64,000 bases of DNA from Nitrospirales bacterium. GTDB lineage: Bacteria; Nitrospirota; Nitrospiria; Nitrospirales; UBA8639. The position numbers and the translations under genes were made by a program. Shown here piece by piece: positions 32,707 through 50,269 of this stretch (within the stretch, counting starts at the first letter, position 1; the number at the start of each line of letters is the position of its first letter). The stretch is from the NCBI GenBank assembly GCA_965223295.1, contig CBDCWC010000002.1, positions 96,001-160,000 of the forward strand. Reading direction: 5' to 3'. The notes under the pieces were generated by a model. The model saw only the letters and a program-made list of their open reading frames with translations. It did no database searches and had not been told where the DNA came from.

Positions 32707-33062
32707 CGAGTCCCTTTAAAGAAAATTATGGAGTAAAATAGAGAAAGAAATCCGAAACATGGTGCGCTGGATAAGCCAAGAGAGTCAAGTCTCCTGAATG
32801 CTCTTGCCCCTCTGGGGAAAGGGCAGGGTGAGGGGAACACAGTAAATGGTGCGCGAGCGTGAAATAGAGGAAGAAAAATTTTCGTTAATAAAGGAAAGTC
32901 TTTGGACATGCTCAGTATGCTCTCAATGCTAAAGTTGTCCTTTTCCACGTTGTTTGTCAGGAATCCATCCTAACTTTTTTGTGGTTGATAGAGGTGAAAA
33001 CAGTTGATGGATTTATTTGCAGGGATCTACCAAAAAACAATAGTTGAGCAAATTTTGATGAT

Positions 33063-33244
33063 GCCGGGACTCGCCCCGGCGGGCGAGGTCCTTTTGTTTC
33101 GGTAAAAGGGCCCAAAACCATTGACGCTCAGTTCGGGAGATGAAGAGGGGACAGACGCCAGATGGAGAGCGAACCAACTCGCAGGGCTCAAACAAGGTTC
33201 GTAAGAAGAGAGCGTCCGTCCCGAGACCGAACAGCAGGCGTCGA
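33063..33244. ncRNA. Uncharacterised structured repeat, copy 1 (RNA or ssDNA element)
   Basis: Five or six nested or adjacent stems. Homologous to 45085-45272 with compensatory changes. Confidence 0.55.
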
Positions 33245-33354
33245 GAGGAGAGGCGGATGTAGAAGGTTGTGTTGAAGAGTCTTTTGCCCCGAGGTTGTTC
33301 GCCATGAATGAATCTAACTGAGGATCTGATTTTTTCTTAAAGGAGGTGAGTCTG

Positions 33355-44060: not shown

Positions 44061-44918
44061 ATGTACAAAGTCAAGAAGCGGCCGATAAAAAAAGAGAAAG
44101 CCCCGGTTCTCTATAACATTCTCGAGAACTATACGGACCACGATCCTCCCGGGAATGTCATGGTCTGTGCCATGACCGGTGCAGTTAATCTCGCCATGCG
44201 CACGAAGGTGCTTTCTGAGAGTTATGATATCCCTCAAGACACGGTGGAACGCCTACTGGCCGAGGGTGGCGTCTTTCTCTATCCACAAGATGGTCTCCTG
44301 GTCACAAAAGGCGCGTTTGTGTCCAAGGTCGATGCAACTGGGAAAGAACCCACGCAAACTTGGGTCATGGATGTTGAGCAATATGCGGCGGCCGAACGGT
44401 TGCGACAAAGTTATGGAGTATCACTCGAAGAGGCCATGGAGCGTGTGTTTTATCGTGGGTTGCCGCAAGAATTGCAAGATCGCCTTAAGAAGCCAAATTT
44501 AGACTTAGACTATGCTACGCTGGAATCAGCGGCCGCTGCTGGCGGCGATATCCGGTATATCGATTTTAGAAAAGATTGGTCCCCGCATTTTAAGCGTAAA
44601 TGCGTCATGCCAGATGGACGTCTCATTGAAACCAGCGGCTTGGAAGATTTTGCTGAATTGCATGGCACCACAGTGGAGGATGCCCGTACGCTCCTGGATC
44701 ATGGAGGAACGTTAGAGTTAAAAGATCTAGGAGTGTTGGCCTGTCAAATTATCAATGGACAACCTTCCGTCGCTCGTTTCAATGTACGGCAGTACAAGAA
44801 AGCCAAAGCCTTAGTCAAAGAAAAAGAGCTTCATCTATTAGATGCCCTCAGTGAAGTGGCCTATCAAGATCCCATCCTTATGCGCGCCCTCAGCAAAGCC
44901 GACACCTCTTCCTCCTGA
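44061..44918 (+). CDS. Hypothetical protein with internal duplication
   Basis: RBS AAGGAG and a long ORF with two related halves. No family recognised. Confidence 0.75.
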   Translation: MYKVKKRPIKKEKAPVLYNILENYTDHDPPGNVMVCAMTGAVNLAMRTKVLSESYDIPQDTVERLLAEGGVFLYPQDGLLVTKGAFVSKVDATGKEPTQTWVMDVEQYAAAERLRQSYGVSLEEAMERVFYRGLPQELQDRLKKPNLDLDYATLESAAAAGGDIRYIDFRKDWSPHFKRKCVMPDGRLIETSGLEDFAELHGTTVEDARTLLDHGGTLELKDLGVLACQIINGQPSVARFNVRQYKKAKALVKEKELHLLDALSEVAYQDPILMRALSKADTSSS

Positions 44919-45084
44919 GGCCCATGTTTGAAATCGTCAATTTTGTTTTTGACTTACTGTCGAGCTTCTGTTCCTCCTATTTGTAAGAGGAGGATTAAAG
45001 TGGGTAGAGTCATGCTCATGTCCAGTGGTTGGTCTGGCTATCGTCAATGACATAAGTGGCGAAGTATTTTTGTCTTTGTGAGTT

Positions 45085-45272
45085 ACCGAGTTCCGGCCTG
45101 ACAGTCGAGCCACTTTTGTTTCGGCAAAAGTGGCCAAAACTATTGACGCCCAGTCCGTCTACATTTGATTGGATGGACGCAAGGCATGGAAAGGTGGACC
45201 ATCTCGCTTTGCTCAGACAAGGTCCACCGATTGCTAGGAGCACCCATCCATGGGGACGGACTGCAGGCGTCG
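45085..45272. ncRNA. Uncharacterised structured repeat, copy 2
   Basis: Same stems and conserved linkers as 33063-33244. Confidence 0.55.
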
Positions 45273-45307
45273 GATGCTGGAAGGTTTAAATCTTTTGAGG
45301 CCATATT

Positions 45308-45327
45308 CCCCGCTGCTTGCGGCGGGG
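45308..45327. repeat. GC-rich REP-like hairpin
   Basis: CCCCGCTGC-TT-GCGGCGGGG. Confidence 0.5.
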
Positions 45328-45346
45328 ATCATTTATTGGCGTAACT

Positions 45347-47031: not shown

Positions 47032-47910
47032 GTGAGTGCCATGTCTGATTCATACGAGGTTGAATCGGCTACCAGTCTATTGGATTGTGCTGATCCCCAG
47101 ACTTCTCCGCCAGTTCCGTCCCAAACGGGAAGCCTGGAACAGGCCTTAGCCGATATTGAAGAACAAGCGGCCGAATTAGTGAAAACGACCAAGCAAGTGA
47201 TGGCGTCGTTTAAAAAAATAAAAGATGCGGCCAAAGTGGGCGATTTGGTGAAGCTTCGTAAACTACTGGAGGAAGGCAAGACGGCAACGTTGAATTTGGG
47301 CTGTGATTTCGTCAAAACGCAAGAACGTCTGAACTTTGATGAAGCCAGTTATTTGGCTGGAAAAGCCTTTCGTCAAGAACTCCTTTCTACCGCCCAACAA
47401 ATGGGGGTAAACCTTTATGAACATGATGAATTTTTGTTTTCGTATCCAGTTCTTTTGAAAATCCTGCATGAGGAGAGAGCTGTCTCCATTGATCGTATGC
47501 GCGAAAGCCGGTTGCGCCCATCCGTACTCGTGAAACGCCTCAAAGAAGTTCAAAATAAGCCGTTGCGCTTTAAGCCCAAGACGTTTTTAGAAATGCTCTA
47601 TACGGCCTATGCGATTGTCGTTGCGGGTCGTGGGAAACACTTAATTGGAAAGGGGACGGTGATTCCGCTCCTTGAACTCTATCAATTGTTAACGCTTTTG
47701 CCTTGGCAGGCCAGTGAATATACACGACAGGAGTTTGGACGTGATGTGTATTTACTCGATAAAAGTGGAACTATCGCGACGAAAAATCACTATCGGGCAA
47801 ACTTCCATGCCAGTACTGGGGTTCGGGATGTTTCAAAAACCTTAACGGTGATTGCGCAAGGTGGACGAGAAAAAACCTATTATGGGATTTCATTTGTGAA
47901 AGCAAGCTAA
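47032..47910 (+). CDS. Hypothetical protein leading the double-DUF2791 cluster
   Basis: N-terminal helical/coiled-coil region and C-terminal globular region (LYQLLTLLP...YTRQEFGRDVYLL). Co-oriented, 82 bp before the first ATPase. Confidence 0.75.
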   Translation: MSAMSDSYEVESATSLLDCADPQTSPPVPSQTGSLEQALADIEEQAAELVKTTKQVMASFKKIKDAAKVGDLVKLRKLLEEGKTATLNLGCDFVKTQERLNFDEASYLAGKAFRQELLSTAQQMGVNLYEHDEFLFSYPVLLKILHEERAVSIDRMRESRLRPSVLVKRLKEVQNKPLRFKPKTFLEMLYTAYAIVVAGRGKHLIGKGTVIPLLELYQLLTLLPWQASEYTRQEFGRDVYLLDKSGTIATKNHYRANFHASTGVRDVSKTLTVIAQGGREKTYYGISFVKAS

Positions 47911-47992: not shown

Positions 47993-50269
47993 ATGGCACC
48001 ACAGGAATGGCTCAACGTTCTGAAAGTTGCATACCTTCAAGGGTTTATCCGTCGTGGGGGTTCGGCGGTGAAGTTTGCAGTTGTCGAGGAAGCTTCCGAC
48101 ACGAAGTCGGTAGTTTCTGGCATTGAGGAAATCGCCCGAGAGGAAGGCTTTCTCACACTGGCTGCCGATTCCCGTAAGACCAAGGTGCAGCTGATAGATC
48201 TCTTGTTTCAAGAAATGGCGAGACGGATTGATTGGGAGGGGCTGGCCTTCGAATTCATGAAAAAGCTGTTTCATGATCATGAATGTCAGATTCCTGAACA
48301 GCGGGAAGAATGTAGCTGGCAAAGTGTGGCGTCGCTCAATAATTCTGATGAGTCTACTTTGAAACGCGATGTGAACTCCTGGCTTGAACGTGCGTTGTTT
48401 CAAGATTTTCAGATGAGCCGGGAATTTCGTTTAGCGATGATCCAGTTTTGCCTGGCGCAGATTGATGAGGTTACACGACAATCAAAAGAAGCCAATGCCA
48501 TTCGATCATGGCTTTGTGGCGAGTTGAAACAAATGTCTGTTCTCAGGAAATTATTGATCTTCCAGAAAGTCAATCGCAGCACGGCTCGTGATTTGATTGC
48601 CTCGTTTACGCATTGGGTGCGTCTTATCGGCAAGCCAGGTGTGGTCTTAACTATTGATATTTCGGCTTTTATGGACTCAAAAAAGAAAGACACGAATTCG
48701 CTGAATTATACGCCGTCTGCCGTCATGGATGCTTATGAAATGTTACGGCAATTTATCGATGGCAGTGATGATATGGAAGGGCTGTTGCTCGTTGTCGTGA
48801 CCCCGAAGAAATTTTTAACTGACCAGCGGTTAGGCCTCAATCGTTATGAAGCGTTGAAGCTTCGGATATGGGACGATGTACGAGATAGGTTTCGGGCAAA
48901 CCCGTTTGCGCCAATGGTTCGGCTCTTTGAGCAGGCTGAACAGTTTGGAGACAGCTCCGCGTTAGGGCGTGTGGGTAGCCGACAGGATGATGTTCAGCAT
49001 CAACAGGTGATTGAGTCGCTGCGGGCTGGAGTGCCCAGTCCAGGGGCAGTGAAAGCCCTGGGCTGTTCTCAACCAACCGTCAAATCCAAATTTCAGCAAA
49101 TGCTGCAGGATGCGGAAGCCAGTATTCATAAGGGCTGGACGACGCAGGGTCTGCTCATTGAAGGGGGATTCGGGACAGGCAAGTCACATTTATTAGAATC
49201 GCTTCGGCATATGGCTCTCGACTCAAATTTCGTGTGCAGCAAAGTGGTGATTAGTAAAGAAACCCCGCTCTATAGCCCGGCGTTGATGTTTCGTGCGGCG
49301 ATGGGCGCAGCCAATATTCCCCAGAAACGAGGCGATGCTCTAGCCGAAGTAGCAGGTGATTTGAATTTCAAGAGCCCTCAATATGCGGAATTTTACGAAT
49401 GGGTCCATCGTCAAGGTGGAGAAATTGATGGGCGGTTTGCCGCCACGTTGTTTCTGTACGAACGAATGGTCAATGATCCTGAATTGAGTCATCGAATCCT
49501 TCGCTATTGGGCAGGTGACCCAATGACTGATGCCGAAATTAAACGGTATCTGAAATCCTGTGATCCCAATGTGTCGTATCGGTTTGAACGGGTCTCACCG
49601 ATGGAAATGGCCTTGCAGCGGTTTAAATTTGTCTCACGGTTGATGATAGCTGCGGGGTATTCCGGGTGGATTTTACTCATTGACGAAGCAGAAATCGTTG
49701 GCCGGTATTCCTTTAGGCAGCGGGCTCAATCCTACGCGGAGTTAGCACGATGGCTAGGACGTTTAGAAGCATCGAGTTTTGCTGATCTGGGTTATAAGTC
49801 GGGGTTAGCTGCTGTGATGGCGTTAACCGATGATTTCCAAAGCGCTATTTTGGATGAAAAAGGAGACCGCGAAAAAGTTCCGGAGAAGTTACGCGAAACC
49901 GGATCGGAAACGGATTTGGTGCTGGGTCGTCAAGCTGAACAAGGTATGCGATTGATCGAGTGCGAAAGGATTCCTTTGGTTGGTCCCTATGATCAGTTGG
50001 TAGAAGATATCTATCACAAAATTCGTGCAATTCATGGTGCGGCATATGGTTGGGAACCTCCACAAGTGCCAACAATTGAGCGGCTATCCAGCACACGAAT
50101 GCGTGAGTATGTGAAAGGGTGGATTACTGAGTGGGATTTGAAACGACTCGATCCGAATCAGAAAGTTGATATTGAATTGACGGAGATTAAACAGGATTAT
50201 TCAGAGGATATTGAATTAGAAGGTTTGCAGGAAGAAGTTCGGCAACCTGCTCTGACGGAGTTTCCGTAA
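47993..50269 (+). CDS. Fused double DUF2791/BrxD-like P-loop protein (paralogue 2)
   Basis: ESLRAGVP, GGFGTGKS, ILLIDEAE. N-domain without P-loop, with RYEALKLRIWD. Confidence 0.8.
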   Translation: MAPQEWLNVLKVAYLQGFIRRGGSAVKFAVVEEASDTKSVVSGIEEIAREEGFLTLAADSRKTKVQLIDLLFQEMARRIDWEGLAFEFMKKLFHDHECQIPEQREECSWQSVASLNNSDESTLKRDVNSWLERALFQDFQMSREFRLAMIQFCLAQIDEVTRQSKEANAIRSWLCGELKQMSVLRKLLIFQKVNRSTARDLIASFTHWVRLIGKPGVVLTIDISAFMDSKKKDTNSLNYTPSAVMDAYEMLRQFIDGSDDMEGLLLVVVTPKKFLTDQRLGLNRYEALKLRIWDDVRDRFRANPFAPMVRLFEQAEQFGDSSALGRVGSRQDDVQHQQVIESLRAGVPSPGAVKALGCSQPTVKSKFQQMLQDAEASIHKGWTTQGLLIEGGFGTGKSHLLESLRHMALDSNFVCSKVVISKETPLYSPALMFRAAMGAANIPQKRGDALAEVAGDLNFKSPQYAEFYEWVHRQGGEIDGRFAATLFLYERMVNDPELSHRILRYWAGDPMTDAEIKRYLKSCDPNVSYRFERVSPMEMALQRFKFVSRLMIAAGYSGWILLIDEAEIVGRYSFRQRAQSYAELARWLGRLEASSFADLGYKSGLAAVMALTDDFQSAILDEKGDREKVPEKLRETGSETDLVLGRQAEQGMRLIECERIPLVGPYDQLVEDIYHKIRAIHGAAYGWEPPQVPTIERLSSTRMREYVKGWITEWDLKRLDPNQKVDIELTEIKQDYSEDIELEGLQEEVRQPALTEFP

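Follow-up and report, generated by a model that had tools for sequence, protein, structure and literature searches.

The stretch of DNA analysed here, a 64,000-nt window (positions 96001–160000 of contig 2, CBDCWC010000002.1) in the genome of a Nitrospirales bacterium (assembly GCA_965223295.1), holds two copies of a structured intergenic element, copy 1 at 33058–33260 (+) and copy 2 at 45080–45289 (+). Within Nitrospirales, the element represents one variant of a class of structured intergenic elements, modular and multicopy, that spans phyla and is absent from Rfam; a kinship with the recently extended TwoAYGGAY class is probable. Its fold is kept by compensatory change, its copy number differs about five-fold or more between species, it is present or absent at matching sites, its arms have been swapped at one locus, one subfamily moves inside a miniature inverted-repeat transposable element (MITE), and its constant module recurs in Gammaproteobacteria and in a Saccharimonadia genome. 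As the best explanation we propose, with about even confidence and including the inferred steps set out below, a family of non-autonomous, mobile, modular structured elements; the window copies would be members of such a family, distributed throughout the lineage.

In each element, a nearly invariant module of ~65 nt, comprising two hairpins with UUUCGG loops, an overlapping, pseudoknot-like short helix and the linker CCAAAACCAUUG, is joined to an interchangeable arm, which in the window copies consists of four nested helices capped by the loop AACUCGCnnnGCUCAAACAA. The genome (3.78 Mb in three contigs, 100% complete) yielded 11 clear copies in a BLAST search with copy 1. From these 11 the covariance model R1 was built, which recovered 13 strong and 3 weaker copies as well as 2 doubtful matches. 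An earlier model-made reading of the letters alone (the sequence-only reading) had described an element of about 180 nt present twice; both copies are where it had placed them, but the count fell well short of the number in the genome. R1 sets the limits of copy 1 (181.8 bits, E 2.8e-53) and copy 2 (195.8 bits, E 1.4e-57), the plus sign of both denoting the strand that was modelled and not the functional strand. Aligned over ~250 columns, the two copies show 77% column identity, with common linkers and with stems that differ in sequence but remain complementary. Every stem pair in the earlier list is present in both copies and the shared linkers are as described there, although the list had missed the 5′ hairpin GCCGGG/CCCGGC and a helix UCGN/NCGA. 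The parts of the two copies are as follows, conservation and pairing being those of a 112-copy alignment introduced below.

33063–33087 (+): 5′ region of copy 1, hairpin plus overlapping helix
33063–33068/33075–33080 (+): hairpin GCCGGG/CCCGGC at the 5′ end of copy 1; weak in copy 2; outside R1 yet covarying
33070–33074/33083–33087 (+): helix CUCGC/GCGAG overlapping the 5′ hairpin of copy 1; covariation in 112 copies
33088–33096/33103–33111 (+), span 33088–33111: P1 hairpin of copy 1, GUCCUUUUG-UUUCGG-UAAAAGGGC
33112–33122 (+): conserved linker CCAAAACCAUU of copy 1, at least 90% conserved in the 112-copy consensus
33123–33242 (+): long arm (type A) of copy 1, four nested helices, 72–90% paired
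33123–33127/33238–33242 (+): closing stem GACGC/GCGTC of copy 1
33129–33136/33227–33234 (+): stem CAGTTCGG/CCGAACAG in the arm of copy 1
33148–33158/33212–33222 (+): stem GGGACAGACGC/GCGTCCGTCCC in the arm of copy 1
33169–33175/33196–33202 (+): apical stem GCGAACC/GGTTCGT of copy 1
33176–33195 (+): conserved 20-nt apical loop AACUCGCAGGGCUCAAACAA of copy 1
33243–33262 (+): purine-rich 3′ tail of copy 1, conserved after the closing stem in 105 copies
45109–45118/45125–45134 (+), span 45109–45134: P1 hairpin of copy 2, GCCACUUUUG-UUUCGG-CAAAAGUGGC
45145–45271 (+): long arm of copy 2
45145–45149/45267–45271 (+): closing stem GACGC/GCGTC of copy 2
45151–45159/45255–45263 (+): stem CAGTCCGTC/GACGGACTG in the arm of copy 2
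45170–45180/45240–45250 (+): stem TGGATGGACGC/GCACCCATCCA in the arm of copy 2
45194–45201/45221–45228 (+): apical stem GGTGGACC/GGTCCACC of copy 2
~45201–45220 (+): apical loop AUCUCGCUUUGCUCAGACAA of copy 2
45307–45328 (+): terminator-like hairpin 18 nt past copy 2, 9 pairs (7 G-C) followed by TCATTTATTG; a consensus match only

Minimum-free-energy folding recovers the same nested arm in both copies. Copy 2 folds far better than its shuffles (z −5.05, 0/200 as good), copy 1 no better than them (z −1.36, 21/200 as good), and the case for structure therefore rests on covariation. Among the 11 own-genome copies, tested against the structure read from copy 1, 81.9% of the cells are paired and 24 of 50 pairs change on both sides, which none of 500 shuffles reaches; slid controls pair in 35–46%. 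In an alignment of 112 copies from 98 loci, which was fitted to R1 and thus leans towards the model, the paired cells amount to 88.7% and 44 of 50 pairs change on both sides (again 0/500 shuffles), with 637 both-side change cells versus 199 expected and 32–50% pairing in slid controls. The sequence-only reading had taken conserved structure with drifting stem sequence as the signature of a functional RNA or folded single-stranded DNA; that pattern holds in both sets of copies.

P1 is paired in 94.9% of cells over the 112 copies, with 6 of its 10 pairs changing on both sides, and arm helices 5–9 are 72–90% paired, each pair changing on both sides in some copies. The 5′ hairpin is absent from the model; one of its pairs is CG in 70 copies, GC in 23, UG in 5 and UA in 2, and in a gammaproteobacterium the hairpin reads GUCAGG/CCUGAC. 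In the overlapping helix UCGN/NCGA, the N–N pair is GC in 38 copies, CG in 19 and UA in 10, with 32 cells unpaired. Because two nucleotides lie between them, this helix and the 5′ hairpin may alternate and not coexist. The single-stranded stretches CCAAAACCAUUG and AACUCGCnnnGCUCAAACAAGG are invariant in the consensus, a UUUCGG loop caps both 5′ hairpins, and further loops, C(UUCG)G and G(UUCG)C, occur in arms of a second type (type B). All 10 own-genome matches to the motif AACUYRCnnnGCUYARAYA fall in copies of the element, and past the closing stem the purine-rich tail (+1 to ~+18) conserves GGA..A.RG.A in 105 copies. In a candidate pseudoknot that would pair the apical loop with the 5′ CGAG, both sides are invariant, and the adjoining position is without covariation (CC 45, CA 22, CG 19). 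An outer closing helix between the U-rich 5′ flank and the 3′ tail was rejected, cognate pairings being no more stable than non-cognate ones (−8.3 vs −8.5 kcal/mol, p 0.67); a few subfamily cases have a compensatory look.

Two variants of the fold were seen. One own-genome copy (C3:1344791–1344974) is without the stretch between the two UUUCGG motifs, so that the 5′ half of hairpin 1 is joined to the 3′ half of P1, and the joint has the form expected of a deletion between two short repeats. In the orthologue of copy 1 in a related genome (L205, G016), an inserted hairpin of ~24 nt separates CUCGC from GCUCA in the apical loop, and the apical stem carries compensatory differences; the same type of insertion occurs at own-genome C2:170155.

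Rfam 15 returned no match at gathering scores anywhere in the window. At E up to 10, the two copies together gave only a chance DnaX match outside the element, and seven further loci gave no match to it. This Rfam comparison had been proposed by the sequence-only reading together with a covariance-model search, and the latter found copies throughout the genus and in other phyla. R1 matches all 36 genus genomes searched, with 7 to at least 39 copies in each; 39 candidates were scored per genome and many of these counts are floors. Among three other families of the order, 1 of 24 genomes has a weak match. In an even sample of the phylum, 5 of 7 genomes from a sister genus of the same family match and 0 of 18 from the next family, and in a further Nitrospirota family three genomes match the apical hairpin only. 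In a Nitrospirota family other than that of the window's genome, the same 20-nt loop (AAACUCGCUUCGCUCAGACA) sits on a hairpin of its own within a different conserved intergenic element (L297, G071:C22, ~530–575; L299, G134:C13, ~505–550; minus strand), which has no Rfam match. The dispersed RNA or mobile structured element suggested at the outset is supported by what was found, namely a multicopy element outside Rfam that is gained and lost between relatives.

Beyond the phylum, an exact 28-nt motif from the P1 region is informative. Titles among the matches listed from public records include Nitrospirales or Nitrospira and, in other phyla, Acidiferrobacterales, Sedimenticola, Lysobacterales, Rhodanobacteraceae, Ahniellaceae, Gammaproteobacteria, Saccharimonadia, Natronospirales and metagenome-assembled genomes. 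R1 matches 14 of 14 such loci tested, and five of the genomes hold 2, 20, 17, 6 and 3 R1 copies; in an even sample of the class to which the gammaproteobacterial genome G066 belongs, 16 of 150 genomes match. In these phyla the module is constant and the 3′ part variable, some copies spanning ~97 nt; such short forms consist of the module and a small hairpin. Viral contigs gave 0 matches to the 28-nt motif, and a plasmid collection none to a 73-nt module.

TwoAYGGAY, in which two hairpins with AYGGAY loops share a basal stem, is a structured RNA class known since 2010, for which we found no assigned function in the literature. A permissive Rfam scan of G066 loci returned this class (RF01731) at 43.8 and 43.5 bits, with a gathering score of 43, and the whole G066 genome has 14 matches, 7 of them above the 43-bit cut-off. 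Ten of the 14 adjoin or fall within R1 matches; they are on the opposite strand, just 3′ of the module in the R1 orientation. Six aligned units share one layout (module, small hairpin, linker, and two hairpins whose loops, seen from the other strand, read AYGGAY), and one conserved mismatch is A-C on the R1 strand and G-U on the Rfam strand. At L238, L240 and other G066 loci, RF01731 is antisense to and fused with the module, and the hairpins vary by compensatory change. In the own genome, RF01731 has 0 matches with E up to 0.01.

On the Rfam strand, the module would supply three further hairpins and a pseudoknot-type helix at the 3′ side, which fits the extension of TwoAYGGAY set out in the text of a preprint of September 2026 (Li et al., 10.64898/2026.09.22.753630). 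A closely related architecture has probably just been described on the opposite strand. According to that text, the extended class is multicopy (medians 11–23, up to 202 per genome) and strain-variable, occurs mostly as divergent doublets and beside REP arrays, and is largely confined to Pseudomonadota; the main text of the preprint is without any word beginning 'Nitrospir-'. Six nearby copy pairs, in five other Gammaproteobacteria and G066, are convergent in the R1 orientation and hence divergent in that of the preprint. As far as the preprint's text allows comparison, both sets have tens of copies that differ between close relatives, intergenic locations, a covarying structure, and doublets or clusters beside repeats. 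The window copies differ in having neither AYGGAY loops nor an RF01731 match and in bearing a different arm with its own 20-nt loop, and the Nitrospirales copies, besides belonging to a different phylum, mostly form direct arrays instead of the divergent doublets reported. Judged by the text of the preprint, the family probably corresponds, in Nitrospirales, to the extended TwoAYGGAY elements of Pseudomonadota.

The position of copy 1, which ends 86 nt before the start of a gene for a pyridoxal phosphate (PLP)-dependent decarboxylase, raises the question of a cis-acting leader, i.e. a riboswitch or attenuator for the decarboxylase and for other downstream genes; moreover, the second 5′ helix of copy 1 followed by CCUUUUGU scores as terminator-like. 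Yet among 15 loci with a decarboxylase orthologue, the element accompanies the gene at only 3 and is missing from 12; it precedes the gene in the own genome and in G016 and follows it in G013. The own-genome neighbours (PLP decarboxylase, SlyD-like, YceI-like, Bat-operon, PIN and MazF-like genes, several named by eye) are mutually unrelated, and 5 of 11 own-genome copies face a convergent gene. Over 63 copies, the nearest downstream open reading frame (ORF) is co-oriented in 26, opposed in 25 and missing in 12; for the nearest upstream ORF, the figures are 35 co-oriented and 21 opposed. A constant position before co-oriented, related genes was not found. The leader reading is already contradicted and very improbable, and the sequence-only reading, which had judged a riboswitch less likely, was right to do so. 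One array had suggested an 'element then gene' rule, which fails over the 63 copies and was likewise dropped. Clustering of 922 flanking ORFs from at least 100 loci revealed no recurrent neighbour gene, its one large cluster being the translated element.

Occupancy varies at the other window copy, too: the site of copy 2 in G064 holds 594 nt of unrelated sequence without a model match at E up to 1. How some copies move is visible in one subfamily of the relatives, in which similarity across genomes extends from ~−142 to +52 around the core. The resulting unit of ~404 nt, which encodes no transposase, carries 28-bp inverted repeats at its two ends, namely GGATCATACAGAATTTATGGTTCGAGCC and its complement. 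Among 9 aligned copies, 4 have exact 8-bp target duplications and 3 have duplications one base off; other loci add 2 exact cases. Inverted ends, target duplications and the lack of a transposase are those of a MITE, whereas the structured core is carried as cargo, and such ends are missing from the majority of core copies, both window copies among them. Elements of ~215, 260 and 340 nt without the core have these ends as well, and the MITE family carries at least four different internal cargoes in relatives (e.g. L275–L283, G005, G028). Its end word, with up to 3 mismatches, is found in 33 of 41 genomes, with ~77 occurrences in G005 and 0 in the own genome. The earlier statement that terminal inverted repeats and target-site duplications are lacking therefore holds for the window copies, at neither of which inverted ends were found, but not for this subfamily. 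A search for an autonomous transposon with MITE ends found none; four regions with widely spaced ends held short elements only.

A second route of change is evident at a Bat-operon locus, where the element occupies the same place in six of six species with a common flank and 5′ module, the flanks being 70–93% identical. The arms at this locus are of type B in G000, G016, G035 and G005 and of type A in G064 and G027; the two type A species continue with different extra ORFs (165 aa and 84 aa, respectively), and homology ends just past the constant module. P1 differs between the species in a compensatory manner that is independent of arm type, which argues for a mosaic exchange between module and arm. 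The idea that the 165-aa ORF marks a mobile cassette was discarded, as the three genomes with this ORF share the whole locus, i.e. it was inherited.

The same locus bears on the possibility that the copies are host-serving small RNA genes, each kept by selection, whose module binds a host protein and whose arm confers specificity, with the RNA acting in trans or as a protein sponge. In favour of it are the Bat-operon retention across six species with compensatory P1 changes, and conserved single-stranded stretches and loops that would be unusual in a purely parasitic repeat. Tandem arrays with a period of ~324 nt resemble arrays of small RNA genes, 11 of 14 classifiable copies lie along the leading strand (2 are ambiguous), and a terminator-like hairpin follows copy 2. 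However, no conserved promoter was found at a fixed distance upstream of 134 copies, where conservation is limited to a T-rich tract (−11 to −8) and a TT (−2 and −1), and promoter prediction gave none for the two window copies. Further, genomes of one genus hold as few as 7 and as many as at least 39 copies, the element is absent at matching sites of close relatives, some copies sit in a MITE, and the arm swap at one locus fits an exchange between repeats better than conservation in place. Taken together, we regard such genes as rather doubtful, though far from negligible, and prefer the mobile modular element.

The arrays, in turn, invite comparison with integrons. Seven regions from relatives contain 31 matches. 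The arrays comprise 5 to 8 elements each, which with few exceptions point the same way; in one of them (L224), seven elements share an orientation within ~8.5 kb and the eighth is opposite. Between the elements lie Mrr, HEPN/MtlR-like, GNAT, TIR, methyltransferase, DUF5677 and GGACT genes on both strands, along with an rve integrase, an IS110-family gene and family-less ORFs. An element together with a DUF5677 gene forms a ~1.35-kb unit in 2 of 41 genomes, with unrelated flanks. Such a picture might be expected of an integron-like recombination site for accessory cassettes, with the TTTCGG hairpins as core sites, perhaps as folded single-stranded DNA, and incoming DNA bringing the arm. It would accommodate the same-orientation arrays separated by defence and accessory genes and insertion sequences, the 1.35-kb unit, the homology break past the module at the Bat locus with differing ORFs thereafter, the deletion at C3:1344791 exactly between two TTTCGG motifs, and wobble pairs that indicate no clear strand. 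As far as described, integron attC sites, including attC clusters without an integrase, likewise keep structure while sequence drifts and form same-orientation arrays between diverse accessory genes (IntegronFinder 2.0, PMC9024848), whereas our element is a 210-nt multi-domain fold with a large invariant block and not a single bulged hairpin. In addition, cassette genes lie on either strand, no GTTRRRY (R′/R″) boxes were seen in the two window copies, and the best integron integrase match in the complete own genome (TIGR02249) scores 82.9 bits against a cut-off of 265. No recombinase recurs beside the copies in the neighbour-ORF clustering, the 165-aa ORF cassette was inherited and did not move, homologous recombination between 65-nt repeats explains the same patterns, and C(UUCG)G loops point to RNA. 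We therefore consider a dedicated recombination site unlikely. A bolder variant, to which we attach a slim chance, would make the module the handle of a trans-acting system that exchanges 3′ DNA, in effect an integrase-less cassette platform shared by Nitrospirales, Gammaproteobacteria (including TwoAYGGAY) and candidate phyla; if true, it would give TwoAYGGAY-type RNAs a function.

A search for mobilising enzymes speaks to a further alternative, namely an orphan guide or template RNA such as the omega RNA of TnpB or IscB, an IS110 bridge RNA or a retron msr-msd. The constant scaffold with a variable part, as well as the size, is reminiscent of these RNAs, and an IS110-family transposase lies within one array. 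That gene, however, lies on the opposite strand with no element next to it; the complete own genome has 0 matches to the TnpB zinc-ribbon (PF07282), IscB not having been searched separately, and 0 to the reverse transcriptase family PF00078. No such gene recurs beside the copies, and Rfam HEARO and IS605-orfB gave no match; we hold a guide RNA to be very improbable. HUH transposases of the Y1 type do not track the element, since they occur in 39 of 41 genus genomes and in 3 of 5 genomes of other phyla, and the three own-genome Y1 genes with places listed are far from every copy. The association with HUH/RAYT transposases or reverse transcriptases raised by the sequence-only reading is thus not borne out, Y1 being absent from four copy-bearing genomes. 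In a relative (G012:C15), 67 Y1 (IS200-type) matches, most with identical scores, indicate a recent burst of an insertion sequence in one species of the genus.

For the preferred reading, a mobile family of modular structured elements, the proposed steps would be as follows. The constant module may serve as a handle for a factor acting in trans; copies would spread at the DNA level, carried along in MITEs and recombining with one another, a spread that the observations document in part; and the elements might be co-transcribed with neighbouring genes and act as folded RNA, by analogy with known structured intergenic repeats. Repeats of the latter kind, such as REP/BIME/REPIN with RAYT, ERIC/IRU, Correia (NEMIS), RUP and BOX, are high-copy and intergenic, often located after genes or in the gap between convergent ones. 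They are co-transcribed and fold as RNA; their number differs from strain to strain, and they are nested with insertion sequences. Compared with them, our element is longer and multi-helical, with conserved loops, a pseudoknot-type helix and a module common to several phyla; and in contrast to REP/REPIN, no RAYT is linked to it, inverted ends occur in one subfamily only, and Y1 is missing in the four copy-bearing genomes mentioned above.

The element probably acts as RNA, and points exist for either strand, which we treat as unsettled. UUCG loops that read correctly, the orientation of neighbours and the leading-strand bias support the plus strand, and the TwoAYGGAY link supports the minus strand. 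As had been remarked from the two copies, wobble pairs do not decide the matter: on the plus strand as given there are 302 G-U versus 166 A-C, but 119 of the G-U come from two arm-base columns, and by part the 5′ module has more A-C, mainly from one P1 column (32), a minus lean, and the arm (143 vs 94) leans plus.

Several observations weigh against the preferred reading. The sole transposition route seen does not apply to the window copies, because these have no inverted ends and the own genome has 0 matches to the MITE end. No mobilising enzyme was found by the searches above; Y1 transposases are lacking from the copy-bearing genomes G007, G036, G068 and G069, of which G007 holds at least 25 copies and G036 at least 39. 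The common Bat site in six species has the look of prolonged vertical retention, which speaks for a host function. The wobble counts conflict, and their excess stems largely from two columns. Finally, identity with the extended model of the preprint is inferred from its text (10.64898/2026.09.22.753630), and 11 loci from 11 other Gammaproteobacteria gave no RF01731 match at E up to 0.1.

The family occupies tens of intergenic sites per genome and marks where accessory and defence genes come and go, and it ties a Nitrospirales element to the TwoAYGGAY structured RNA class. Its constant module provides a cross-phylum search model and a candidate binding site and may help to tell parasites, RNA regulators and recombination junctions apart. 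Nitrospira-like bacteria are key nitrifiers; our literature search found no description of their noncoding RNA or repeat content, and nothing on the element in work on Nitrospira repeats, integrons and MITEs.

As for coding sequences around the window copies, a 92-aa ORF (33027–33305, −) overlaps copy 1 and resembles ORFs at other copies, i.e. it is the element translated and likely a mis-calling as a gene. Small ORFs in the element and in the MITE do not keep their reading frames between copies, in line with the initial judgement that no credible ORF is present. Copy 2 lies between the stop codon of an ORF at 44061–44918 and the possible terminator at 45307–45328. This ORF and another at 47032–47910 (285 and 292 aa) match no Pfam family; they neighbour a 758-aa ORF (47993–50269, +) that matches the BREX BrxC/BrxD ATPase family (E 3.2e-32), and because of this nearby BrxC/BrxD-like ORF, copy 2 may be located at the edge of a possible defence island.

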